A stretch of DNA of 56,832 nt, counting the filler, from Streblomastix strix (lineage: Eukaryota): assembly GCA_008636045.1 (NCBI GenBank). It is 3 parts of 3 records of this genome, joined end to end, with 100 filler letters (N's around TTAATTAATTAA, not from the genome) between each part and the next. Parts side by side here need not be neighbours in the genome. Positions count along the whole stretch, not along the records: positions 18,980 to 37,856 come from SNRW01000566.1; 2 more parts are not named here. One strand, written 5' to 3'. Under the pieces are notes generated by a model. It did not search any database and was not told the DNA's origin. It saw only the letters and a program-made list of their open reading frames with translations. Position numbers and translations under genes: made by a program. How positions within the stretch are numbered: position 1 is the first letter of the stretch; the number at the start of each line of letters is the position of its first letter. Shown one piece after another: positions 9,615 to 48,374 of this stretch.

Positions 9615-9820
9615 TCTTCGTTTTTTTAAGTATGAATCTACTTTTCCAGCAATATTTCCAATTGTACCGATAACCCCACCAATTCCTGGATGTAACGTAC
9701 TTACTGGTCCACTTAAACAACGATAACTTTATGAATTGTTGGGGCCAGTCAACTTGCAGCTTTCTTAACATCAGTTAATATTTTGGAACCAAAATTTTTT
9801 AAGCCTGAGAAGAAACCCAT
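9615..9820 (-). pseudogene. Small amphipathic (adenovirus pVI-like) virion peptide
   Basis: MGFFSGLKNFGSKILTDVKKAAS*LAPTIHKV..LSGPVSTLHPGIGG. Homologue of 30472-30678 with one TGG>TGA stop and one frameshift. Confidence 0.75.
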
Positions 9821-9881: not shown

Positions 9882-11846
9882 ATGAATTTCTCTGCAAATA
9901 ATTATCTATAAAAGCTCACATAATCATAACATTCTGATTATATTTCTTCATATACTGCATTGAATGAAGTTTTAAGATCTGCATCAATTCATCCTTAAAG
10001 TTTAGTTTTTAGTAGAGTTTGGTTTTTTGATTAACCAATTACTAAATTGACAAGTGATAGATAAAGATATACTCGTGCTCCATTAGGTGCTAGGGGGAGT
10101 GGTATATGTTCAATTGTATAAACTTGCTAGGCTAATTGGTAAATAACAATTCCAGCAGGTGGATTGGCATTATAAATTAATCATGCTGATTAAACAGCTA
10201 TAGCTGATACTGCAGTTTAATAAGCTGTAATTACATAACATAAAGTTAATTTTACAAGAAATGCTGATTATACATTTGATTATACCCTTACTATGGAAGC
10301 TAGAGCAAATTTTGATACATAATAATTATATATCACTTCAGAACATATCAAATTTTTGTTTGGATTTTCAACTGCTTGTGGACCATTTTAGTAATTTGCC
10401 ATTTGCAATGACAATACAAAACTATATGATACACCGATTTATGCAATAGAATAAGTCTTGATTACAGCAAATTCACTATCAAACTTATGTACAAATAATT
10501 CAGAGAATGTATCACCATTAGACTCAATAGTGGCTGGAAAAAGACATTGTGGAATATTTATTGATATCCCAGTAGCTGCATTCAGTGCAAATGCAGGTAG
10601 ATTCAACAATTTAATATCATTTCAAATAATATTTTTTTGGAGTACTTGATTTAAATCAATTGAATCCAATTTTCAATTCATTTCTGTTTAACGCGCAATT
10701 ATGCATCCTTATTTCTATAGTAATAGACTTAAAATTTCTTATAAGATCTGAAGATTATAAGGTTAATCAAGACTAATATGGTAACAAATGAACATCTTGC
10801 ATATTAAATGATTCCTCCAGAAAAGCCAGATAAAATTTTCCAAAGAAATCGTGATGATGTTGCATATGATACATACACTGTTAGAATTATTAATATGGAA
10901 GGAAAACTAAACACTGAAAAATTTCCTACCAATACGATTTCACAGATATTAGATGCAAAATTTGATAAAATTGACATAGGCAATGTAAGTTTCAATATGG
11001 AGAATGAAGAAGCAATTATAGATCTAATTCAAGCTAAAAAAAATAATTAATTATCCTGCATAAATTATTCATACATAATCTACAAATTTTCATTTCTGTG
11101 GCATTGATGAAAGTGGAGGTAATTTATAGAGTAAAATGTAATTTGCTAATATCAAATCAATGTATATAACGTTTACAATGAACTAATATTTTACTTGGTT
11201 CTTACTTGTTTTATTTTCGTGGTTTGATTTAATAATTGATTAGCGTCATCTAGTACCAGAATCTTACACTTCACTTAATCAAATAGTCTGTGGTTAAATG
11301 TTTAATAGTTTTTTAGATTAAGATGTTATAGCAGCACCTTCAGATTTTTATCATTCATTAACATTTGAAAACTGATCAATAAATGAATCAGAAAAAGATT
11401 ATTATGGTAAAATGGGTTCTGGAATAATAGATAGAGAAAATATATTCTATATAACTGCTTTATTCAGAAAAAGTAAAGCAACAAAAGTGTATTATCCTAA
11501 TAAGTTCATGCTTACATGGAAGATGGCTACAGATGATTCATTCATGAGCGGCTACAATTCATCTAAAATTGGCGCTAGAACTAATATTTATGTAACGTTA
11601 TAAGGCAGTTAAACTCCTGGAATCAATGAGAATTCACTAATTAATTCAGGAAAGTACCAGAACCATCACCAAATATTTTATGCAACTAGAAGTCATCCAT
11701 ATCCTAGAACTGCATACGTAACTCCATTGATGCATTATCTTTGTGATGCTATTGTTAGAGTTACTTTTAATGATGCACCAGATCCATAAGTTCTAACTTT
11801 AGAAGTGATTGGAGAATTAAGTGGAAAAATGGTATGAGCAGGATGA
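9882..11846 (+). pseudogene. Putative major capsid protein
   Basis: ~655 codons, colinear homology to 28423-30405 (YTRAPLGARG, STACGPF, GKRHCG, MIPPEKPD, YPNK..WK.ATDDSFM.G.NSS..GARTN). Carries stops and frameshifts. Capsid identity is inferred from size, conservation and context. Confidence 0.65.
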
Positions 11847-18879: not shown

Positions 18880-18979
18880 NNNNNNNNNNNNNNNNNNNNN
18901 NNNNNNNNNNNNNNNNNNNNNNNTTAATTAATTAANNNNNNNNNNNNNNNNNNNNNNNNNNNNNNNNNNNNNNNNNNNN
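18880..18979. other. Artificial contig linker
   Basis: N run with central TTAATTAATTAA. Confidence 0.97.
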
Positions 18980-21900
18980 GATTTATTCATTTAACTATTT
19001 TTCACTTCATTTTTACTTTTTTCGACCTTTTATTATTTAATAAAAATTTTATGGTTTATTAATTATTTAAATATTTTATTACAATTTATTACTATAATCA
19101 TTTTTGTGTTGATTGGTATTAGTTTTCATGAATTAAAATGTTTATTTAAAGAAATATATTTTTCAGAAGAATTAAATTGAATATTGATTAAAATCAAAGC
19201 ATGGCTTATATAGAATTCGTTAAAAATTATTTTTTGCAATTTTCATTTGATTCTCAGCGACTGTCAATAATTAATATAAATAGTTTCAGTAATTGTACTA
19301 CGAAAGTTATATCTAATTAAACAAAACATAAATTAATATTAGATTCATTTTATCCATGAAAATATAGCACAAATGCACCTTTTTTAAAAAATTACAGTTT
19401 GTGTCAGTTTTTATTCAATATCCAAGGGATTACAATTTATCAAACATCTATAATTTTATTTAATATACACAAAATTTTTAAATATTTACTTATATGAAAA
19501 TAAATACTCACATTATTATTGGAAAATCTAAAAAGCGCTTAAAAGTGCTGAAAAAAACGCATAAAATGCTGCAAAATGCGCTGTAAAGATCGGGGCATTA
19601 AATTCTCGATGAAAATTAAATATTTTTTTAAATTTGACAACGATTTATCAATTAATGAGATTATATCTAATATTTATATCAATAATGACACTAAATGAAT
19701 TTGTGGGAGTGGAGTAAATTGAGTACGAAAAATCAACTTTTTTAAAATACTAATAATTAGGACTAATAATCAATAATAACGACGCTGTTTAAGAATAAAA
19801 TTTATAATTTATCTGTTTGATAAGTATTATTAACTCAAATGATAAAGTAATTGCTTTTTTACGGAACAAAATTTCGGATTTTTTTAACAATTTATAGATT
19901 GGAAAATTTTAATTAGAACGCTTTTAATTTTGCGCAGCGCGCGTTCAGCGCTCTTAAAAGCGCTTTTGTCCAACACTATTTTATTATATAAATAGAGTAG
20001 AATTATTTGTCATAATTAGGAATGTTATCTTAACAAAATCTCATGACATTTTAACAAATATGTGTGACATGTCAGACTTCGAAGATAAACTGGTGTAAGA
20101 TACTAAAATAAATTATTCTAAACTCCACAATATTCGGGACACGACCTCATCTTTGGGGGCGCGGCTACATCAAAAAAACGCATTAAAAACTCATTATCCA
20201 TGGTCACATTCTTTCATCCCATTATTTATTTATTTTTTATATATATAAAATTATTTTATATCAAATTGAACTGATCATTATATTTATTATTATATACAAG
20301 CCTTAAATAAAAAAAATTCGATTCATGCACCATTAAATATAAATAAATATTATTTACAATGCTATTCTGTATTTAAATTAACATTTTTATCAAATAAATT
20401 GAATTTTACAAACAGTAATACCGCAATTACTTCAATAAATCATTCAAAAAAATTTTGAGAAAAAAATTCCTTCATAATTCATTTAATACTAATCAAACAT
20501 AAACCTTTTATATTTATCTTTAAATTTGTTTATTCATATATTCCAATAATTACTATAATTTATTATTTCACATGCTGATAAATATATAAAATATTTTTTT
20601 CATTTCCATTTTGCAGGATTTATAGTATTAATTATTATATTTGCTTTCAATATTAATAAGGTAACTGTTTACAATTTTAATAATTTAAGGTGTGAACCAT
20701 AAAATTGAAATAGATTCCTTAAATTAATAATAAATTCTAAATTTACATTTTTTATCTGAATATGTTTGTTAATCAGACTAATTCCAAAATATTATACAAT
20801 TCCTTATTACAATTTATATTATAACCAATATTAAGAAACAATTTACAAATATTTATGCCTATTTGAATAAGGGAAAATGAGATGCAAGATTTAATTTCCG
20901 AAAATGAAATATCATCATAGATCAGCGTTCCTCCTAGCCTTTAAACTTGTTACATTTTACAACAAGTCAAAAAAGAATTAATTGGAAGGTACCTCAAGTG
21001 ATTTTGAAATTTGAAAGAAAAGATATATATCAATAAAAAATATTTCTGCTCCGCTACACGTGCCTTGCAAAAAATTATTAATCAGTTAATATAACTATAA
21101 AAGTTTTCGTTTAGCCATTCGTACGTTGCAATATCTTATTATTTATAAATTAACTTATAATAATTATTAATTAATGATGCATCAAGTTAAAATTCAAGCA
21201 ATAAGTCTCCAGTTGCAAAAGGGAACACTGTCATGGATCGTTAGAAAAATTTACTTCGTACAATTTTAAGTAAGAATTATCGTAGAAAATCTTGTGCGCA
21301 ACTAGAAACATTTCTCACTTCAAGTAGTTATATCATTGTTGCATCATTTTTTAATACTTATTTATCAAATTTATTTTGATTAATTATTTTTAATTCACTA
21401 TTTAAAGTAAAATAAATTATGGTATAATGCAATAACTATGTTATTTAATATATTGAATCTTTGAATATATATTTTATCAAAAATATATTCTAGTTCTATC
21501 AGGTATTATGACTATTTCGTCTTACTCTATCATTTATATGATCACCATTCACATGTTGTAAATTGACTATTCCAGCATAATCTTCTATTTTTTCAATTGT
21601 ATCATTTATTGAATGCCTTGTAACATGATTTCAACTCAGTGATGTAATCAAACGATGATAAAAATTTTTAAATGAGGTGATAATTCAGGAAACTCAGCAA
21701 ATCCAAACTATAGTATTATTGCTGGATCTAAAGAATAGAAGAAAAATAAAATAAATAAAATATAAATAAATAAAATATAATGTTTAAATGAACAATAAAT
21801 CCTATTCAAAACCATATTTTGCGGAAATTGAATTATTTATAACATTTATGAAATAATTGTGTTAGCAAGACAAATACTATAAGAAAATTTTTAGTTTTGA

Positions 21901-22448
21901 ATTGTATAAAATGATATACGATAAGAAATACGTACATTAAATATTTTGTTAAACTTTCAGTGTAAAGCATTATCGGCATTTGAATATTTGTTATTTCAGA
22001 TGGATTTATAATGGTATATCAAAATTGAAACAAATTATATTTATAAATAACAATTCATATGAATTGATGGAAAAAACAAAAATCAAGTTTTTTTTCATCG
22101 AGGAGAGGCGTGCCTCTTATGTATGTTGTAAGTAAAGTTGTTTTACATAATGAGCACATATAAAAATATGAAAATCTCATATTTTATAATTTTGATATTT
22201 AATTGGACAATTTAGGGTCATTTTTTTATCTACATTTGGAAATTTTATCTATGATTATTTTATTTTCTTGAATTAATGGAAATCTTATTAACATAGAATA
22301 ATGTTAAATAATAATTTTATTATAGTATGATTATAGTAATAAATTGTAATAAAATATTTAAATAATTAATAAACCATAAAATTTTTATTAAATAATAAAA
22401 GGTCGAAAAAAGTAAAAATGAAGTGAAAAATAGTTAAATGAATAAATC
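18980..22448. repeat. 122-bp inverted repeat pair (18980-19101 / 22327-22448)
   Basis: gatttattcatttaact...actataatcat is the reverse complement of atgattatagt...aaatgaataaatc. Confidence 0.9.
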
Positions 22449-22981
22449 CAAAAATAATTTACAAATACTAAATACAAATATATAAGTTTAATATACCCGA
22501 ACATATGTAATTAAAATTGGAAAATTCAAAAAAAAGAGAAATGAGAAAAATATAATCGAGAAAATTAGAAAATTTATTAAATTGCAATAATGATAAATAA
22601 TAATATAAATATTTGGTAATATATGCAAAATTGATACAAATATAATTAAATAAACATAAAATAAATGTTCAAATTTATATGGTTTCTAAAAATTTTAAAT
22701 TTGAAAATTTTAAAAAAAATAAAATAGGTATATTATGAAGAATTATCATTTAGTTTTGTTCAATTTTATCTTAATCAAATTTTAATAATAAATTAGTATA
22801 AATTTAAATAAACTTAAATAGTTCTGAATGTTAGATATGCATAAAAACAAATATTTTCATATATAGGCACAGATGAAGTGGACTAATGTATAGTTAATAT
22901 AATTTTAATTGAATTGAGTCGTATTTGCAAATAAACATATAATCGAATAATTAAAATTAAAAATCAGTATAGAAATCAGTA

Positions 22982-25204
22982 TATTTTAGAAATATTCACG
23001 TTCACCAGCAAATTCATTGTTGCAAGTAAAGTAATGAAATCTTCTATTACCTTTCTCAGCAGGATTAGCATTCACATCATTGCATGTACAAGTAAAATTA
23101 CTCCATATTTCACTTTCTACTGAATCAACTCCTTTGCGTTCAACTATGCCACTTGCTTGTGTGATAGCACTCTTCATTTTATGTTGTAAATTGAATGAAT
23201 CAGTTGCGTCTTATATCTCATTAAAGTTGATCAGAATTGCAGTTGCTGCCAATGCGTTAAACTTACCAAATATCTTTGATAATTCATCTACATTCTTTAA
23301 CGCAAATATACCTAATAGTTCATAGATTGTTTCGAATGCAAATGACTTTCCACATCCTTATTAGCCAATGAAGTTCATCATTGTTCCAATTTTCAGTTTC
23401 ACTTGTTAGAAGATTGATGCGAACCACTTAATGATGTAATCATAATTCTATTCAGTATCAACTATACCTGCTAATACGTTTTTAATGTGGTTCAGGAATG
23501 GTTAAATTCGTGTGAAATCATTAGTCTATATCTCTTTGTACGCAAAGCCAGTGAACATATTAATACATCCTTCTTTATTTTTTCTTAGAAGATAACCTCA
23601 TTATATCGGAATGCTTTACCATATTTATTTATAATTTATCCGAGATTAATTCTATTCACATTAATGAATGGTTTATCGAACTTAAAGTAATTCGTCATTT
23701 ACTCTTCGGATTTCATTACTATTTTGAACTATCTTTTATGTCTTATTTTTGTGCAGCAAGATCCATATTTCACTCCAACAACTCCTCTAAGATCATTTAA
23801 CAACTAATTGAAATCACTATTTTTATACTATCTTGCTTTAACATTATTAATATCATACTCTGATTCGTTTATATTAATTGTTTTATCAACAAATAAGTGT
23901 TTATGCTCATTCTTATACCTCTACTAATCAATTGAATCTAAATGCTTGATAATCGAATAGAACCATTTGTTCGTGAAATCTTACATGAAATATTTCATAA
24001 TTTTATTAATTGTCTCATCAAAATTGTGATTATGTATTCGCTAATTATACCATTCAGTGTAGCATTCTTTAATGAATTCTTCGGTATGAGGAGAATAATG
24101 GATTGGAGCAGTTGTCTTCTCTAAATTCTCAAAGGTTGTTTCAAACTTATTCAATAACCCCATCATCTACTCTTTGTTAAATACTATCAGATTGTCATCG
24201 AAATCAACGTCATCAATTTTTATGTTTTTAATATGTGTTTTAGTTATTATTTTTCCATCACCTGCAACTTCAGCTACACCATTATCTACATCTACTAATC
24301 TCTTTGCGTTAGTTTTCTCTTTCTCCCTTTCTTTCAAACTAGGTAGTTTATGAATAACATTATTCCAATTACTAATCACATCGCCAGTTGAAGAGTCATC
24401 TTATATACATTAGATAATCTGATTAAATGGTTAATCATTTGGTTTACATAGTTGACCAGCGATGTATATTGATTCTTTACCTCTATAATTTTTACTCGAA
24501 AGTATGTATCTGAATATTTATCGAGATGACTTACTAACATATTTCAGTTTGTAAACGGAATCATCAACGAATTCATTAATATCATAGACAAATCTCCTGG
24601 TATTTTAATTTCCAACTTTCTTAACAATTTCCATCATATCTTATTAAAGGATTCGTTTTTCATAGAAAACAACATGAATTGATATCTTTTTTGCAGCATC
24701 AGTAATATATTTCAAATTGTGCGTTGCGCATATTTTAGGATCATTTGAATATCCACCAATTGAGTATTAGCCAAATTCACTAACTAAAGAATCTAACTAA
24801 ATAATTGCTGAAGCGTATTGGTCATTTGATTCAATGTGGTCAAAATCGAAGTAAGGATGGCAATATTTATCTGGAAGGATTACTTCATTAAAAGCAACTG
24901 AACCATCAAAAGTAAAATCATTTATCTTAGTCGTATAATATGTACATATGTTCTTGAGATCTGATGATACATCAATTACTGGATACCACTTAACAAAGAA
25001 TTCAGGAATGATACGTTTAGATGTTTCATTTACGTATTTGCTAAGTAAATCATCAAGAAGCTTATTATCTTATTCATCTACGGATTCAAAAATATTTTCA
25101 TTAGTCTTATTTTTCTCTTGTTCTTCAATCATTTTATCCATCAATTCTCGGGCAATTACACCAGATTTTGTGATAGAAACATTGCGTGTAGTTTGTCTTG
25201 ACAT
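22982..25204 (-). pseudogene. AEP primase fused to SF3 (D5-like) helicase
   Basis: FNEVILPDKYCHPYFDFD, KISIHVVF and VDDSVYK (AEP motifs I-III); FIGQQGCGKS (Walker A), LINFNE, IVERKGVD, TCN and NRRF. Frameshift near 23580; C-terminus appears truncated. Confidence 0.88.
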
Positions 25205-28422: not shown

Positions 28423-30405
28423 TCATTATGGTTAAATAGCTCTTTTAGCAAGCTCACCAATAACATCAATATTTAGTACTTATGGCATTGTACTATCATC
28501 AAATATGATTCTAACAGACGCATCATACAAGTAATGCATCATTGGAGTAATAGATGCTTTATTAGGATCAAGATATGCTCTAGTTCCAATGAATTATTTG
28601 AAATCTTTTTAGTTCTATGATGGGAAAATATTAGTTGTATCAATAATTCCTTTAGTCAAATTTCCCTACAAAATAACTTATACATTAGTTCTAGCACCTA
28701 AGTTGGAAGAGTTTAATCCTCGCATAAATGAATCATCAGTAGCCAATTTCCATGCAAACGTATATTTGTTAGGATAAAGTGTTTTAATCGCTTTACTTCC
28801 ACTATACAATGTTGTTAAATAGAATAGATTAGCTGTTTTATATTAATCGGCATTATCTATCCTTCCATAATAATGTATCTTATCATCAATATTCAAGTTC
28901 TCGAATGTAAGTGAATGATATAGATCTGATGGTTCACTAACAACATCTTAATCAACGAAGCAGTCAAACATTTATCCATTAGTTGCTTAGTTTAATGATT
29001 TATATGGCTATGGGATAACATTGTTCTAATCAATAACTAGATTAAGTCCTATGAATAATACAGGGAAAAACCATGTTGGATATTAGGGCATAGTAAATGT
29101 CATAAATAGTGATTTTATGTTAGAGAATGGCATAATGCTTTACATTGTTCCACTAGTTTTATCAAATCCACTAAACTGAAAGTTCGATGATTGTGTTCTA
29201 AATACTTATGTAGGAAAATTTATGATTTTTTGTTATTGAATCATACTAATTATAGCTTCTTCGTTTTCAATATTGAAGCATACGTTCTATATCTCTAATG
29301 TATCAAATTTAGCTGTACCAATCTAAAAAATTGAATTTTGTGGTATCTTAACACCAACAGCAGTATTTTGCATATTTACAATTCTTACATTATATCTTTA
29401 ATACGATAGATCAGCAGCAGTATCTCCTGCCAAAAGAAAAACTATATCAGGTTTCTCAGGAGGAATCATGTGATAAGCTAAATGGTTATTTTATATAGTA
29501 TCATTTTTGTTAAGCCAAATAACCTTCAAATCTTATAGGAAATCTTATATCCATAATTGTAGATATAATGTTCCATAATTACGTGTGAGAACAGGGAAGG
29601 AATTAAATATAGGATTCAGTTGGTTAAGATCAAGTACTCCACTAAATGTAATATCAAAAGGTATTCTATAATAGAATGGTGTTCCAACGGTAGCAACAGT
29701 TGCTTATCTATCAATTTCACAAAGTGGGATATCAATAAATACTCCACAATGACGTTTTCCTTCAATTATACTTTCTAGTGGTGATACGTTAACGCTATTT
29801 TTAGTGCACAAATCGCTAAGAGAATTTCCACTAATTACTGCTTATTTTCTTGCATAGATTGCAGATCCCCATAGTGCTGTTGCATCTTTCAATAATTAGA
29901 ATTAGTAGAATGGTCCACATGCAGTTGAGAATCTAATCCAAAATTATAGATGTTCTGATGATTCAATCCCTTAAGCTGTTTTACCGAAATATCCTTATGA
30001 CGCTTATGACATATTTGTAGTCCAATCGGCTAACGGATCTTCTTTACCATTGATATTAGTTCGTGCAATTAATTTACCTGCAGTATCCCAGCCATCATAT
30101 GTTTTATTTAATTATATTGCAAATGTGTTTGCAGGTATTGTAATTGTCCAATTTACTTAACAAGTTTGAACCATTGAACATGCTGATTTACCTCTTGCTC
30201 CTAATGGTGCTCTAGTATATTTAACTTCACTAGATGTTAGTTCTGTAATTGGAGAATCGAAGAAATTTTGCTTTGATATTTCAAACGATTATGGATGGAT
30301 AGATAATGTTTTTAATACATCTCCAAGTTACATATATCCACTAACGTAATCAGAATGTGCTATATTCGCTAATCGTCCAAGATAATCACTGGATTTGAAA
30401 GACAT
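28423..30405 (-). CDS. Putative major capsid protein, 660 aa, intact
   Basis: Read codon by codon: no in-frame TGA from ATG 30405 to TGA 28423. Full-length homology to 9882-11846. Function inferred from context. Confidence 0.7.
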
Positions 30406-30471
30406 TTCATTGAAACAAAAATTAATGTAACGGAATGAATGTTTATGTTAAAAGTTTTTATATTAAATCAA

Positions 30472-30678
30472 ATGGGTTTCTTCTCTGGAATAGCAAATTT
30501 TGGGTCAAAAATATTAGGTGGCGTTAAGAAAGCTGCATAATGGGTTGCACCAACATTGCATAAAGTTTTGTCAACAATATCAGGTCCTGTTGGAATGATT
30601 CACCCTGCTATTGGAGGTGCATTAGGTGCAGGAGCTAATCTCGCAGGTGCTGTTGATCGACTTGTAAATAAACGTTGA
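30472..30678 (+). CDS. 68-aa amphipathic Gly/Ala-rich peptide (pVI-like candidate membrane-lytic protein)
   Basis: MGFFSGIANFGSKILGGVKKAAQWVAPTLHKVLSTISGPVGMIHPAIGGALGAGANLAGAVDRLVNKR*. Conserved in element 1. Confidence 0.82.
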
Positions 30679-30704: not shown

Positions 30705-32945
30705 ATGAATGCTTCACTATCATAATAGTAAATCCGTACAGTTAGATAATTCATCACTAACGATATAGCTTACAACATTCAATATTAGAAACGAGGTAAT
30801 GCAAGTAGTGGAATGATGTCAAATGAAGAGTATTAATTATTCATAGATAATAACAATGCATTATTCTACGCTGCTAATAATTAAATCGTTGATGGAATGG
30901 CATCAGATTACGCATTAAAAATAGAACCTAATGAATTGCTAACGATAAAGAATTTGAAGGTGATTAATTTTGATTTTGTTGCATAGATTAATTAGTTGAT
31001 TAATTAAGTAAATTTACTATAACAATCAATTGAAACAACTGAATAGGATATAACTGATATAAAAAATGATATTGATACTATTAATTAAGAATTGTCACGA
31101 TAAACACATTTCAGAGGATATTATTTATTGAATACAGATATATAAAATTTGCCTAATTCTGCTAATGGTGATTTTGCTTTTAGCGCTGAAAGTGGGAACA
31201 GTTTGGATGTTTGATTCAAATTGGTATAATAGTGGAGATATAGTTCCAGATCAAGTTACACCAGCTAGTAATGCAACACCATTATCTGATGGTACAGCAA
31301 CTGCAGGAATTAGCACTGAATATTCACGTGGAGATCATGTTCATCCAATTAATATTACAACTACTATTCCAATTAGTGATTCTGCTAGTCGATCAGTTGG
31401 TACAACTAATTATTTTGCCAGATCTGATCATTCACATCTATTAAATATAACAACTATTATATCACCACAAGATAGTGCAAGTGGATCAGTTGGCACAACT
31501 AATTATTATGCTAGAAACGATCATTCTCATCCCATTAATGCAGAATCTAATGCATCAAATATTCCTGTCGTTAATGGTATTGGTGCTAATGGAACATCAG
31601 CTTTTTACGCTAAACAAGATCATATTCATCCATAATAATTAACTTATGATAGTAATGTTACAGCAACTAAGTTCATTAAAACTGGAGGATTAGCAACAGA
31701 AATATTATGCACTTATGGTGATACAACTACTTTAGATAATAAATTATCAAGAACATATTCAGGTAATGGATGGGTTAGATTATGTGTATTTCCTGCTGGT
31801 GCTAGTGTTGGTAGTCCATTCATTGAATTCAAACTATATTCAGCATATAATGCTGATCAAATCATTATACTTTAGCCTTATTATACCGTCAATGGAATCA
31901 ATACTTTATATGGAATATTTACTGCTCCAACTAGAGTTACATCATACTATTTGATTGATAGTGGTGCAAATAAATTATTTCATACTCATACTGGAACATG
32001 TACAGCAGCTATTTATTCTGCATATATTAGATTAGAAACAGTAAGTTCTATTACAGTAGTGGTTACTGATTAAAGCACTTATTATACCAATAGAATTACC
32101 GAGATATTAACGTAAGATGTTGTTTCATCAGTTCTCATTGGTACATAAATACCTATAAATTATAACTATGGATATGGAGGAATAATGTAAAATATTCTAT
32201 AAGTTAATCTAATAGATCGAATGAAAGGAAATTATAATAATGGTATTAGAATAGGATCATTTGTGAGTGAATCTTCGTTATATTTAGCTTGTAGCAATTC
32301 AACAATTAGTGGAACAGCTGCAGGGTAATGGGAAATAAGTAAAACAAGTGATGATGCACTAACAATAAATCCATCATCTCTACGATAAGCAGATCGTAGT
32401 GTTTGATTAAGTATTAATAGTGATAGTTCAATAATTAAATTTAATGGTAATGAATTAGTGAATGTTGGAACTGATTAAACGATTAATGGAAGAAAGACAT
32501 TTGGAGGTACTACTTTAGGTAGTATTTAATTAAATTCAACTGATGTATCATACGGTGAAGGGATAAGAATAGCAGATAGTCCTACTTCAAATGTTAGCGC
32601 TATTTATATAGGAACATCGACTAGTTCATCAGGTGAGATTGACGGATAATGGACAATAATAAAAGAAGTGCTGGTGAATTGATAATAAGTAGAACAGCTG
32701 ACAAAAATATAGATAATAAAGGATTAATGATATCAGCTGATGGAAACACATTATCTTTCAATGGTTCTGAAATTGCAGGTGTTGGCGCAACTAATGGAGC
32801 GACTAACTGTTCGGTTAATTATTCTGCTGGCAATCCTATATTATGTGGTGCAAATAGTGTTGGAACAGAAGATGGATTCTATAGTAATGGAAATAACGTA
32901 TTCTGGAGAGCTCATCCATTAACAATGGGATCAGTTCCTCCATGA
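30705..32945 (+). pseudogene. Phage-tail-fibre-like protein
   Basis: N-terminal coiled coil, four HxH repeats (YSRGDHVHP, FARSDHSHL, YARNDHSHP, YAKQDHIHP), KFIKTGG, and two GIRI..GQW..FNG modules. Frameshifts at ~31194 and ~32660, one TGA. Confidence 0.8.
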
Positions 32946-34168: not shown

Positions 34169-35191
34169 ATGAAAATGTCACTACAAGAATTATAAGATAT
34201 CACATTTACTAATCAAGATCTATTGAACGAATATAAAACTAAACCATTAACGAAGAATTCATTGTTTCTGATTAATGGTAATCATTATATTGCTGGAGCT
34301 GTAGGAAGCGGTAAAACAACATTAATGTGTAAGCTAGTTGTAGTATATAAGAAAATCATTGATCCATTTATATTATACTTCTCGAATTATGGTGCGAATG
34401 AAACTATTGCATTAAACCTTATTAGTAAGAACATTTAACTAACGAATGTAACTTATGGAGAAGCAATGATATTTCTACCTGAATTTGATGATATAAATTA
34501 TTCCACTAAAGAGATGTACACTTGGTACAAAATGAATGAGCAAAAATAATCTTATACTAGCGATTTCATTAAGCGAATGGAAGAATAGATATTATAAGCT
34601 AATGAGATTAAAAAGAATGAAAAACCTAATGATTATCTTAATAGAATTGCAGAACTATACAAATAAAAAGTAATCGAAACCATTAATACATTTACTTAAC
34701 CAACCAAGATATTGAGATTCGATATCCCTGCTTTAATTCAAAATGTTAATTACTAAAAGAAATTCAAAATGGTAGACAACGATTAGGTTGATATAAAGGT
34801 GATGAAAATACCTATATTAGGAAAAGCTTAATTACTCCATACATTAATGCTCTTCGATGATATTGGATCCAGTGCAGATATATAACGATTCAGTTCATAA
34901 ATATCTAAAACATTAACGCATCTCATTAGCGATTCTCATCATTCAAAAAATACTATTTTCTTTATAGCTTAACGACCAACTTATTTGTTCAAGACAGCAA
35001 GGATATTAACCCATTTAATTTGCTTCGGGGTGAATTTAGGTGAATCTGAAATAAGATAAGTGTATGAGGAAAATACCATATAAAATTTAGATTTTGATGA
35101 ATTCTAAATACTATACAACACATTAAAGAAATACGAGTTTATCATATTGAACAAATGGTTAGGAAAATTTGAGATTCTCAAAAACAAATGA
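34169..35191 (+). CDS. A32-like genome packaging ATPase, 340 aa, open frame
   Basis: Walker A GAVGSGKTT, Walker B LMLFDD, ISDSHHSKNTIFFIAQ..KTAR. No in-frame TGA. Confidence 0.88.
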
Positions 35192-35239: not shown

Positions 35240-35823
35240 ATTGCAGAAGAAAACAATGAAGTGAATTATTGGGAACCGTTAGTTGTAGACACTGACTATG
35301 AGATATTAACAGAAGAACCACATACGATTAGAAGAATTTCAAATTGATATATTCTAGCAATATCTATAAATAATTCAAACGGATATTATTAAATTAAATT
35401 AAAAAGAAAAACATATCTATATCATCGTATTCTAGCATTATATTTCTTATTTAATCCTAATCATTTACCAGAAATTGACCATATTAATAGAGTAAAGTCA
35501 GATAATAGATTAGAGAATCTAAGATGGTGTAATAGGTCTAGTAATTTAATAAATAATAGTTCACATCAAGATATATAGTACAATTATATTGATTAATTAT
35601 CCTATGACGCTATTACAGTTAATTAATATGGATTCTTGCAGTTTGAATTTCTATATTTTGAAAATGACAATTTCTATTTCTATAATGGATTATAATATCG
35701 ATAACTTCACATTAATGAACATAAAAAACATGTACATTATTTATTTATGCTTATGATATCAATAATATATAACGTTTAGTAACACTCAATAAATTTAAAA
35801 AATTATGTAATATTGATTAATGA
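35240..35823 (+). pseudogene. HNH homing endonuclease
   Basis: GYYQIKL..YHRILALYFLFNPNHLPEIDHINRVKSDNRLENLRWC. Start codon lost, internal TGA, frameshift. Confidence 0.88.
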
Positions 35824-35847
35824 AAAATAATTTATTTCTGTTTAGCA

Positions 35848-35877
35848 GAGCTTAGCGGAGCTCAAACCTACGGTTTC
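35848..35877. terminator. Twin hairpins between convergent HNH and polB genes
   Basis: gagct-tagcgg-agctc immediately followed by aaacc-tac-ggttt. Function inferred. Confidence 0.35.
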
Positions 35878-35889
35878 AAATCTTTGGTT

Positions 35890-37856
35890 GCATTCATATG
35901 AGTAGTATTTCGCTATGAGCCCGAACATATAAGGGCAACAACTCTAGTTCTCTAATACTATCATTTTTGTATGTATACCAATTATTCCATTTTTCTCAAT
36001 AGATAATTAACTCATCTAATGATTCTTCTATCCCAATCTCATGTTTGTGCATTTCGTTATTTTTCCATCATTAATGCAACCAACAATCTGGTCTTTAGTG
36101 ATCTAGTTAGTCTTCTAATTAACTCCTTTCAATTTTATTTTTGAATCATCGCAATAATTCTTGAAAATGATATAATTTTTGGGAGCTAATGCAATCATTG
36201 ATGGACCTTGTCGATCGATTGCTAATCCAAGGATTTTCTTCTCTTCATAAATGTCTCCTTTAATTGTAGGGAAGAAATACTTAGCGTTCTCATTATAAAA
36301 ATCTCTGTCTTTAACTACGGCATTAAATTACTAAGTAAAATCTTCATTAGGATTTTCACTAATTCCCCAATAAGCTGAATAAGTACCTCCTTCAATAAAA
36401 TGTATCCTATTCATATCTAAGCATTTATACATGAAATTATATATGAAATTTAGACACCAATATTTAGCATCATCTAAAACAAAGAATGCTACTAATAAAG
36501 GAGTATTACAACTACAATGCTCAAGATTCATTTATACAATATAACTGTCTTCAGATATCTTTTGTTCGTCCATGAACGCATTAGATCTAATTGCTCTTTC
36601 TGTTTACTTCCTATTCATCATTTTAACTTAATTATATTTCTCTGTATTCATTCTATCACTACCATATGAGCTATTCATAACTATCTTAAAGAATTATTCT
36701 TATCCCTTACTCTCATCTAATTTTGCTTCAATTCTGTTTTTACTAAATTCCTTAATAAATGAGTTGAATTAATCATGTTTATTGAACAGAATTATCCATT
36801 TCACATCATCTATAATAAAATAACAATCATCAATTAAGAACCATAAATAGTATTAGCTAAATGCCATATATTCTCCCATCGTTGATGATAGATTAGTTAG
36901 CTTTCTTTATTTTTGATCTGTCTTAATCGTACTGTCTTTCATGTGATTGAACATATAACTACCGATAGTTCTTTCATCAGTTGTAAATTCATAATTCCTT
37001 AGAATAGGATAGAAGTTAATATAGTAATTAAGGTAATTCTCATTAATGTGACCTTTAACTTCAGAAATGAATAATTAACCATCTTCTGTGAATCTCTTTT
37101 TGCTATTAATCATTCTTAATATAGTTTATTTTGAATGTTCAGTGTCTCAAATAATCTTACCTGTTTATGATCCACACATATACATTTTACCTCCAGTATA
37201 TTTTATAAATTTATGTGGTTCTGATGGCATAACACTAGGATATAAGGAATTAAAATCAACACCAACTACATCAGTAATTTGATGATCAGTTGTTAGAACA
37301 GTGACTTTTTTATTTTCTTTATCATACCATAATCGTTTTATAAAATCAATTCCTGATCTATTAACTCGATGCATTACATTTGATAATCCACCTGTGATCC
37401 ATTTCCTAAGCAAATGATATACTTCAATATCTGTTAGATTAGTTAGTAAGCATCATATCATGCAATATCTACGTAATTATATGAATAATTATCCTATATT
37501 TTTGTCTTTATCCGAACAGAAGCAATTGCAATATAAACAGCAAGGCTGAACGTTATCTTTTGAAGGACCTTTTGAATTATCTATTCTGTCTAGTGTTGGT
37601 TTATTAGAAATAGTGAATTTGCGTCCACAAATGCTGCAATTAGAAACTTTGAATTACTGTTTGAAATAATCGAAATCACTATCTTGTACAATATTTGTTG
37701 TGTCTCTTTTTTTATGTTTATCTTACGATAGATATCCTTTCACTTTACTCTACCAATAGTTCTCTGTTAAGTAGAATTTCTATGAGTTATCTTCAAAATT
37801 AGGATATAATCCATTAATATCAAAATCTTCATAGGCTTTTGCATATTTGATTGCAT
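35890..37856 (-). pseudogene. Family B DNA polymerase (5' truncated by contig end)
   Basis: CSICGRKF..PTLDRIDNSKGPSKDNVQPCCLYCN, GVDFNSLYPS, KIVMNSSYG. Motif C decayed to EGGTYS; KGVN present; internal TGA ~37453. Confidence 0.92.
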
Positions 37857-37956
37857 NNNNNNNNNNNNNNNNNNNNNNNNNNNNNNNNNNNNNNNNNNNN
37901 TTAATTAATTAANNNNNNNNNNNNNNNNNNNNNNNNNNNNNNNNNNNNNNNNNNNN
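37857..37956. other. Artificial contig linker
   Basis: N run with central TTAATTAATTAA. Confidence 0.97.
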
Positions 37957-38329
37957 GGAAGCAATCCCTTACGCATACTCGAGCTTCCACCCAGCGCTTT
38001 TGCATTGGTGAAAGAGACATTTCTTTGGTTTAGATCGTTCAAAAAAGCAAGATTTTAATTTTCTTTTTTATTTAAATAATTACGGTATATTTATAAAAAA
38101 TTAATAAATAATATTAATATCTACTTAAATTATATTAATATGGTTAAGAAAAGTCAAAGATACGTCGAAAAAAAATACCATGTATGCTTGGTTACGTATC
38201 ATTTTTTTTTTAATTTTATTTTTTTTTATTTCTGACTCTCTTTTGAAATCACATCTTTCAAAAATAGAGAAATACCTAAAAATAACAAATATTTACGAAA
38301 TAACAGGGATATTATACTATATTATAGAT

Positions 38330-45870: not shown

Positions 45871-48374
45871 ATGCAGTCAAATAACAATTCGATTGGGTCT
45901 GAGATAGTGTGTCCATTATTTGTTAAGAAATTCATTACTTATCTTAACTCCTTTTTTCCTCGTTGTGTGATCATTTATATTTTTAAAGCTTTCCTAAATC
46001 GTGTTCTATCGAACATACTCACAAACATTGAGCACTGGAAAGAAGGAGACATATGATGAAACAGTAGATCGCGTTGAAACGATGCATATTCGAAAGTTCC
46101 CTTCGCTAGCATGGGACATCCACTAAGTCATGAACATGGTTCGAAGTAAAAAGATTGTTCCATCCATGAGATCGATGTAATATTCTGGAATGGCAATCGA
46201 TCGATCAAACACAAGGTGAGAAATATAATAATCTAAAAATATATTTATTATTTTTTTTTCTTTTTTTATCTTCTTCAACTTATTTCTTTATGTATTAAAA
46301 ATCAAGAATGTACAATTGCGCATTTACTAATGTAGAGAAAATAAAAGACTTTGCTGATGTGCTATTCCTGCTATGCAATGGTTGTGGATGTGGATTTAGT
46401 GTATAAAAGCGACATATTGAGAAACTACCAATAATCAATGGTGGGCATGCAGAAGTTATGGAAATACCAGACACGAAAGAAGGATGGGCAGATAGTGTAG
46501 TTAGACTTATTGAAAACCCAGATATTGTATTTGAATATGGAAATATTCGACCATTAGGAGCATCATTATCAACAGGAGGAACAGCAAGTGGACCAGAAAC
46601 ACTTAAAATGATGCATGAATAACTACGTAGTACACTTAAGAAAGCTATAGGACGTAAATTACGATCAATTGAAGTGCATGATATGATGTGTTAAATAGGA
46701 GATTTGATAGTTAGTGGAGGATGTAGAAGAAGTGCAATGATTTCACTATTTGATTGTGATGATGAAGAAATGATGGAATGCAAAAGTGGATGGGAATGGT
46801 TCTAAACATCACCTTGGAGAGCAAGATCAAACAATTCTGCAGTTCTTGTTCGTTCATCTCCAACATTCAAAAGTGATATGGAAGGAGTAATTCGTAAATG
46901 TTTCAAGAATGGAACTGGAGAACCTGGAATCTTCTTAACAAATGATGCAGATTATGGAACTAATCCATGTGCAGAAATATCATTGAAGAGTAAATAACTA
47001 TGCAATCTAACTGAAGTTAATATGGTAGCATGTAATACAGGTGATGAATTCATATAAGCAGTTCGTGGAGCTACAGCACTTGGAACTATTCAAGCATCAT
47101 ATACTGATTTCAAATACATTTAAGATGAATGGAAATAGAATTGTGAATAAGATGCATTATTAGGAGTATCTCTAACTGGAATTGCTTAAAAGTGGGAATT
47201 ACTTCATAATGATGGAGGATTACTATTAGAGAGAGCTGGATAAGTAGCATTAGAAGAGAATATTAAATGGGCGTAGATGCTTGGTATTAATCCAGCTAAA
47301 AGAATTGGATGTGTGAAACCAAGTGGAACCACTTCAGCTCTACTTGGAACTACATCTGGAATTCATGCAGCACATGCTGAACTTTATCTGAGACGTGTAA
47401 GAATGGAGACTAATAGTCCTTTATCACATTATTTTGTATCATTATATGGATAAAGAATATAAGATATGGAATAAGGAGTTTAGATGCCTACATCGGAAGT
47501 AGCATTATAAGCAGATAAATGTGCAATGCATGTTGGTAAAGCTCTGATTGAAAGTGATGTATATTCTAGAAAATCAGCAACATCAACAACTATTGGAGAG
47601 AAAGGAGAATAAATCTAAATTCCGCATACATTAGTAGTAACTATGCCAGTTAAGATGCAAGATTCTATTGTTCGTTCGCATGAATCTGCAGTATAATTAC
47701 TAAATCGTGCATCATTCATACATGAACACTTCATTTAGAAGTCACATCGAGATGGACCAAATTATCATAATGTGTCTCTTACAGTGAATTACAAAGCAAG
47801 AAAAGTATAAATGGTTAAGAAGATTGAATAAGATAAAGAAATTGAATAAGAAGTTGTGATAGAAGAAGGAGAAGAAGAATAAGTATTATAATGGATATTT
47901 GCACACACAGACAAATTCTCAGGTATTGCACTATTCCCAGATATGTCAGGAGGAGTTACATATCCACAAACACCATTTGAAGAAATAGATTAGAATACAT
48001 TTAATGAATGGGAATAAGCATGGATAAGATTAGGAGAAATAGCAAAAGATAAAATTGATTATCTTTCACATTCATCCAATTCAACAACATCATCATTTAC
48101 TTCTCCACCAATCTCAACTCCATACATTACATCTGAATAATAATCACCAGATAAAATAGAAGATTAATAATAAATTGAAACCACTAATGAATAGTCAACA
48201 TAATCTGCACTTGTTTCAGCACTTAATGCAACAGAAGAACATCCGCATATGACATTAGAAGAATGCATGAATATTCTGAAGATTGGAATGGAAAGAGTAG
48301 CTTGGGATCCTCATGCAATAGATAAACGAAAAGAGGTCTTGTCTTGCGCTGGAGGAAACTGTGAAGTCATTTGA
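45871..48374 (+). CDS. nrdJ: Class II (adenosylcobalamin-dependent) ribonucleotide reductase, monomeric type
   Basis: FYRTYS..ETVDR, VPSMRSMQ, MYNCAF, GCGCGFSV, GGCRRSAMI, EPG, GTNPCAEI, LCNLTEVN, CVKPSGTTS, terminal CAGGNCEVI*. Introns ~45907-45988 and ~46216-46306. Confidence 0.92.

Follow-up and report, generated by a model that had tools for sequence, protein, structure and literature searches.

A 68-aa gene paired with the capsid gene in Polinton-like elements of Streblomastix strix encodes a predicted amphipathic helix whose best match is a virophage capsid tail

The window, by which we mean the whole stretch of 56,832 nucleotides of DNA from Streblomastix strix, a protist of the termite gut, that was analysed, has reading frames that fit translation table 6; the standard code leaves only three ORFs of at least 100 aa. 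At 30472..30678 (+) lies an intact ORF of 68 aa with a net charge of +6, whose product in table 6 begins MGFFSGIANFGSKILGGVKKAAQW, bearing out the original prediction of a small gene at this place. Head-to-head with it on the opposite strand is the gene for a putative major capsid protein of 660 aa (28423..30405, −), the ATGs of the two being 66 nt apart. The other element in the window, element 1, is arranged in the same way: its peptide copy (9615..9820, −) starts at 9820 and begins MGFFSGLKNFGSKILTDVKKAAS, and 61 nt separate this start from that of a capsid gene in pieces (9882..11837, +) that is 65% identical to 28454-30567 over 2.2 kb. The two peptide genes are 79% alike across 96 nt. The head-to-head layout described originally for both elements is therefore as stated, and a second copy is present, but this copy is a pseudogene, with a TGA stop at codon 24 and a frameshift from a 1-nt gap near codon 35, which the earlier reading had missed.

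Directly downstream of the intact peptide gene, 26 nt past its stop, is a fibre-like repeat gene in pieces (30705..32945, +); three gene models that join peptide and fibre carry the UniRef title “Tail fiber protein”. A P-loop ATPase at 34169..35191 (+) has a visible Walker A motif and weak Pfam P-loop matches, and from its sequence it is likely to be the packaging ATPase. A family B polymerase, likely protein-primed, is found in pieces at 35707..38202 (−); its motifs, identified by eye, are what we take to be PolB-like, and it has no polymerase match in Pfam. Also in pieces is a primase-helicase-like gene at 22857..25204 (−), which matches PF19263 (DUF5906) with an E value of 1e-13 on 22860-23558. 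The Polinton-like hallmarks of the element are its ATPase and helicase motifs, plus a capsid protein that is recognised by its name in UniRef and the literature, its structural model being too weak to assign a fold. Several homologues of the 660-aa protein are titled “Major capsid protein” in UniRef, and the available passages of Bellas et al. assign the endogenous elements of S. strix to a Metamonada capsid group and describe them as using the host code (PMC10120064). The capsid model reaches a pLDDT of 30 alone and 48 with 40 sequences; fold searches gave no clear match, the sole whole-length match to this weak model being a PBCV-1 capsid chain (Z 3.9). Two N runs mark joins in the window (18880-18979 and 37857-37956), and since one of them is inside the polymerase region of element 2, this element may have been stitched together. 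Positions 18980-19101 and 22327-22448 form a perfect inverted repeat of 122 nt, and a gene resembling class II (B12-dependent) ribonucleotide reductase (PF02867, PF21995) is found in a host region at 46290-48374 (+).

Within the capsid gene cluster of Streblomastix Polinton-like elements, the 68-aa gene is conserved. Of 86 homologues of near-equal length, 83 are from S. strix and three are JGI proteins, and the C-terminal NKR of the peptide is shared across subfamilies. Searches of Pfam and the PDB with the peptide gave no significant match. In metagenome contigs, none of 457 candidates found with the peptide profile was confirmed and a pattern scan gave no matches, while the sole non-Streblomastix match in one whole-database search (E 1.4) carries PF20155/PF01464, which we take to indicate a tape-measure protein.

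The peptide gene is under purifying selection, in line with the conservation originally claimed. Contigs of four runs (three samples) were aligned to the ORF with an 80% likeness filter, and the best-supported 40 of the 55 variants in the ORF were scored; 33 of these 40 are synonymous (pN/pS 0.076, p 2e-13), and two of the other seven are halves of one codon change. Among the variants listed there are no indels inside the ORF, whereas the flanks carry several, and contig similarity drops off at the start codon and again at the stop. Comparison of the two copies in the window gives a dN/dS of 0.30 (61 codons). The peptide is also embedded in 92 longer S. strix gene models, 77 of which fuse it to the fibre-like ORF, and several longer models join it to antisense capsid sequence. 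The junctions are scattered, with the last peptide residue varying between 44 and 68 and the fibre sequence being picked up at many different points, and we read these joined models as gene-prediction artefacts. Four models (P0288, P0291, P0097 and P0091) join sense-strand capsid sequence to the peptide, which possibly reflects inversion during amplification or, in some copies, a tandem layout.

Residues 2-37 (30475..30582, +), the segment that matches virophage capsid tails, are predicted to form a cationic amphipathic helix with an apolar face of F3, F4, I7, F10, I14, V18, A21, A22, V25, L29, V32 and I36, and a polar face of K13, K19, K20, Q23, H30 and K31. The hydrophobic moment over residues 3-20 is 0.58, with p 0.003 from 5,000 shuffles, and residues 2-33 show their strongest periodicity at 98-100 degrees, so the amphipathicity foreseen for the peptide is supported by computation, and with it a trait of the membrane-penetration class. 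There is no strongly hydrophobic span in the peptide (best 19-residue hydropathy 1.13) and no signal peptide by eye. The proposal that an MG start might permit N-myristoylation finds little encouragement. Gly2 is present in 56 of 63 copies, and this modification is doubtful because the residue that follows is Phe, which the PROSITE N-myristoylation pattern disallows; virophage tails, moreover, have Asp or Asn at the position of Gly2.

The adenovirus protein VI (pVI) motif to which the peptide was originally likened is real: WSG[IL]KNFGS is present in 35 pVI-like ORFs among 44 loci (one confirmed as PF02993), and the peptide and the pVI N-terminal helix have in common a core of S-G-[IL]-x-N-F-G-S. 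In hhalign the two align over 15 columns (65.7%), with a score of 28.7 that none of 60 shuffles reached (maximum 24.9). However, homology to pVI is not shown by this, because helices of phage tape-measure proteins score higher than pVI does: against the S. strix profile, tape-measure stretches reach 9.9-11.4 bits and pVI at most 5.9, and one tape-measure protein itself contains WSGIKNF. Similarity to pVI is therefore no better than to unrelated helices, the outcome that the original reading had named as counting against it. None of 63 S. strix members matches PF02993, the median score with the pVI HMM is 7.1 bits, and pVI is not among the PDB matches of the S. strix profile. The comparison is a narrow one, as the pVI sequences used all share the selected motif and presumably come from one genus. 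With 68 aa, the peptide is also unlike pVI of about 250 aa in having no N-terminal propeptide (pVIn), no GG cut preceding the helix, no PPxY and no C-terminal cofactor peptide (pVIc). By these comparisons the peptide fails as a member of the pVI family (PF02993). What stands of the reading as a pVI-like lytic helix is the likeness to virion lytic peptides and the position next to the capsid gene; direct homology to pVI is the part that is not supported. Residue F3 of the peptide aligns with pVI L40, change of which lowers lysis according to the excerpts available of the pVI study (PMC8310329).

Rather than pVI, what the peptide matches best is the C-terminal tail carried by Sputnik-type virophage capsid proteins, from the GG maturation cut onwards, and this tail appears to be its closest relative. 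When viral contigs were scanned with the peptide profile, one of 154 candidates was confirmed, and this was a Sputnik-type capsid C-terminal tail, on a contig that also encodes penton, protease-like and ATPase-like genes; the match begins where mature Sputnik V20 ends. We gathered 80 virophage loci by capsid-core patterns independent of the tail. Their 58 unique closed capsid ORFs include 54 with a full tail (GG at the cut in 51), of which 29 open with an aromatic-type helix and 20 of another clade are without the motif. The 29 tails, chosen by eye from the 58 unique capsid genes for their aromatic-type start, make up the profile A4, which omits, besides the tail found via the peptide (L002), a near-duplicate, all 20 members of the other clade, four genes with frameshifts and three further ones. 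Other genes seen in the virophage contigs are a Rep-like gene (L001:9456-10955, +; weak PF00799, E 0.002) and a second divergent capsid-like ORF, recognised by eye, that faces the virophage capsid gene (L004:4305-5555, −).

The peptide and A4 align in hhalign with 96.2% probability over 49 columns, and the score of 46 was reached in none of 60 shuffles that keep hydrophobic and polar classes (maximum 29). In the reverse search the tail HMM finds both peptide copies in the window, with E values of 4e-6 and 8e-6 (next match 5.5), and A4 gives 54 of 63 S. strix copies more than 17.5 bits, its top score among 177,635 PDB sequences. On six-frame decoys of 486,000 aa, all 18 domain matches of the peptide profile with iE below 10 are at or just past the GG-x cut of capsid tails, although some loci in this set were motif-selected, the best iE among the remaining loci being 0.017. 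In the forward direction the peptide profile reaches at least 10 bits on just 11 of the 54 complete tails, and on whole proteins virophage tails score 8-17 bits, overlapping phage tape-measure helices at 10-11. Neither virophage capsids nor pVI came within the cut-offs of whole-database searches, which is no evidence either way because it is expected for matches of 10-25 bits.

Virophage capsid C-terminal domains (mavirus MCPC1, Sputnik V20 tail) and the peptide have in common the start F-[FLW]-S-G-L-K-x-F-G-x-K-[IL], a match that runs from the GG cut, and similar length and charge (hydrophobic moment 0.57 versus 0.52). The tails compared are those of viral-contig loci rather than the mavirus and Sputnik sequences themselves, and the post-cut similarity holds for one group of them (29 of 54). 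Unlike a covalent tail released at GG, the peptide is a separate ORF with its own Met start, on the strand opposite to the capsid gene, and has no GG site, basic end piece or visible protease. Nor does the 660-aa capsid protein have a GG-linked tail at its C-terminus; it is unrelated to the virophage capsid, with no sequence or profile link found between the two. No protease HMM match is found in the window (best E 0.16 for a virophage-type protease), but this is weak evidence because the window elements are decayed. In the available portions of Born et al. (PMC6048507), GG sites in the mavirus capsid tail are cleaved by the viral protease, an amphipathic helix that might rupture endosomes is predicted in the first tail fragment, and tail fragments are undetected in mavirus virions. 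The sequence comparisons make it likely that the peptide shares ancestry with the helix that virophages cut from their capsid protein.

Virophage tails also resemble pVI. The two align in hhalign over 23 columns that include the N-G-G cut (81.5%; none of 60 shuffles reached the score), WSGLKNFGS is found just past the cut region in three motif-selected virophage tails, and virophage tails and pVI both finish in a basic peptide beyond a further Gly site. The 15 PDB matches of A4 are headed by the nodavirus gamma peptide 1f8v_D (E 0.037), and four of them are pVI; the E values of these gamma-peptide and pVI matches are 0.04-1.7. An indirect link to pVI through virophage tails therefore looks better than the direct one, at weak E-values. 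It is conceivable that one membrane-penetration module is shared by the small double-jelly-roll viruses and comes in three packagings: virophages would carry it fused to the capsid and release it at GG, protist Polinton-like viruses would encode it as a separate gene, and adenovirus pVI would hold it after a GG propeptide. On this view pVI would be a capsid tail of virophage type that has become detached; we put this forward tentatively, with doubt outweighing belief. The nodavirus gamma peptide (PF01829) is a capsid-derived lytic helix in which eight of 11 residues match residues 33-43 of the peptide by eye (A4 alignment), and it gives no match to the S. strix profile itself. Nodaviruses are RNA viruses and rely on autocatalytic cleavage. 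As a side reading, the capsid tails of L032 and L034, two of the 29, match PF01829 (best E 1.6e-4), which might reflect convergence or exchange between virophage tails and RNA viruses.

A search of 1.84 billion representatives gave 90 matches, and among the 27 examined are eight small weak ones (E 1e-5 to 9e-4) that are not labelled Streblomastix. The P0369 relative has a short leader ending in GG, and P0363 carries a tail-like proline motif. P0364, from the same search, looks like a repeat-protein false match and was rejected. A start-anchored pattern identified eight viral loci, namely four contigs of 16-19 kb, one phage-like contig and three apparent chance matches. The four contigs (L180-L183, two related pairs) encode stand-alone relatives of 123-135 aa, directly behind an ORF of 342-369 aa and with an ORF of 454-624 aa further upstream on the opposite strand. 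L181 carries pPolB (PF03175) and an endosialidase-chaperone fibre, and the 615-aa ORF of L183 is double-jelly-roll capsid-like by Atlas. Comparison did not confirm a capsid identity for the 454-aa ORF of L181/L182, profile comparison gave no penton identity for the 342-369-aa ORF, and there are no profile links among the capsids of S. strix, L180-L183 and virophages. The capsid-like ORFs of all four contigs terminate without a GG tail. Judged from gene content, the stand-alone relatives sit in the putative virion module of free Polinton-like viruses having tail-less capsid-like proteins. A profile of ten of these non-Streblomastix proteins, seven of which came from searching with the S. strix profile, puts the two copies in the window at the top, virophage tails next and then a pVI helix that lies later in that protein. 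Neither these stand-alone relatives nor the relationship to virophage tails had been noticed in the original prediction. On the phage-like contig, a 543-aa protein (L179:1202-2830, −) opens with the same kind of helix and is possibly an internal virion or ejection protein.

We lean, by a little, towards the peptide being the virophage tail helix in a free-standing form, serving entry; by analogy it likely acts as a virion membrane-penetration peptide. In virophages the helix would be masked as a capsid tail and freed by a cysteine protease, whereas translation of the peptide would begin at the position that corresponds to the cut, making a protease unnecessary. The peptide would be inside the particle, held under the capsomers and let go once the capsid loosens after uptake, and its apolar face would then enter the host vacuole membrane and rupture it, as modelled on adenovirus pVI. 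Packaging, release and lysis are here extrapolated from pVI, as described in the accessible parts of PMC8310329, and from the mavirus proposal.

The helix could also be an internal scaffold, cement or genome-tether peptide in the capsomer cavity, with no lytic action. Such a role is suggested by the tight linkage of the peptide gene to the capsid gene, and by what the available passages say of related systems, in which the mavirus tail aids assembly and is proposed to tether DNA (PMC6048507) and the pVI helix likewise binds hexon (PMC8310329). However, a free peptide is unable to strain a capsomer like a covalent tail, and it is the helix fragment alone that is retained, while the highly basic piece at the end of the tails is absent. 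With a lytic peptide as the top PDB match of the tail profile and pVI among the others, we regard a purely structural role as rather unlikely.

A lytic virion peptide might alternatively have arisen by convergence, its ancestry separate from virophage tails and pVI. In favour of this, tape-measure proteins contain WSGIKNF and score like some tails, the tail profile is also matched by the gamma peptide of an RNA virus, S. strix members have frog antimicrobial peptides as their nearest Pfam matches (E 0.17-0.34), and widening the profile (A7) makes it drift to generic helices and lose specificity. The match to virophage tails, however, spans 42-49 columns, survives class-preserving shuffles and begins at the cut site, and the GG leader of P0369 has the appearance of an intermediate, with the proline motif of P0363 as a further tail-like trait; separate origins are accordingly improbable in our estimation.

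The peptide could instead be membrane-active outside the virion, serving cell exit or directed against bacterial symbionts of the host. Its cationic amphipathic profile is that of antimicrobial peptides, and the clusters that Atlas gives for the L183 relative, all below 0.9, have cecropin as the nearest named one, at a low score of 0.76. Yet with neither a signal peptide nor a strongly hydrophobic span, a location in the virion module wherever context is visible, and closest relatives that belong to a capsid protein, we give this use very little credence. Least probable is that the peptide is merely the first exon of the downstream fibre-like gene, as the fused gene models would have it, given that their junctions vary so widely, that other models join antisense capsid sequence, that the NKR C-terminus is retained across subfamilies and that similarity breaks at the start and stop codons.

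A role of the peptide in membrane penetration would place it beside other genes proposed for Polinton-type viruses. The adintovirus genes Cupiennin, PLA2X and GasderminX and the “Macc” class are proposed membrane-active virion genes (PMC8502044, 10.1101/341131, PMC11071296); they come from animal elements, are likened to the peptide by description only, and are not linked to virophage tails in the passages available. A 2025 survey of cryptophyte elements, as far as its accessible text goes, proposes lipases or SLATT pores for membrane crossing (PMC12220804). In the literature searched, which mostly excludes subscription papers, there is no report of a stand-alone form of the tail, nor one that connects virophage tails with pVI by sequence. 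The mavirus tail helix is already known, as a prediction only; new is the free-standing gene for a helix of the virophage type. Since this free 68-aa form is selected in many copies and is also found in other Polinton-like viruses, the helix itself would seem to be the functional unit. The peptide adds a small gene for which element annotations can be checked, and it bears on how Polinton-like viruses and virophages cross membranes. It also provides a path, open to testing, by which adenovirus pVI could have arisen from a capsid tail.
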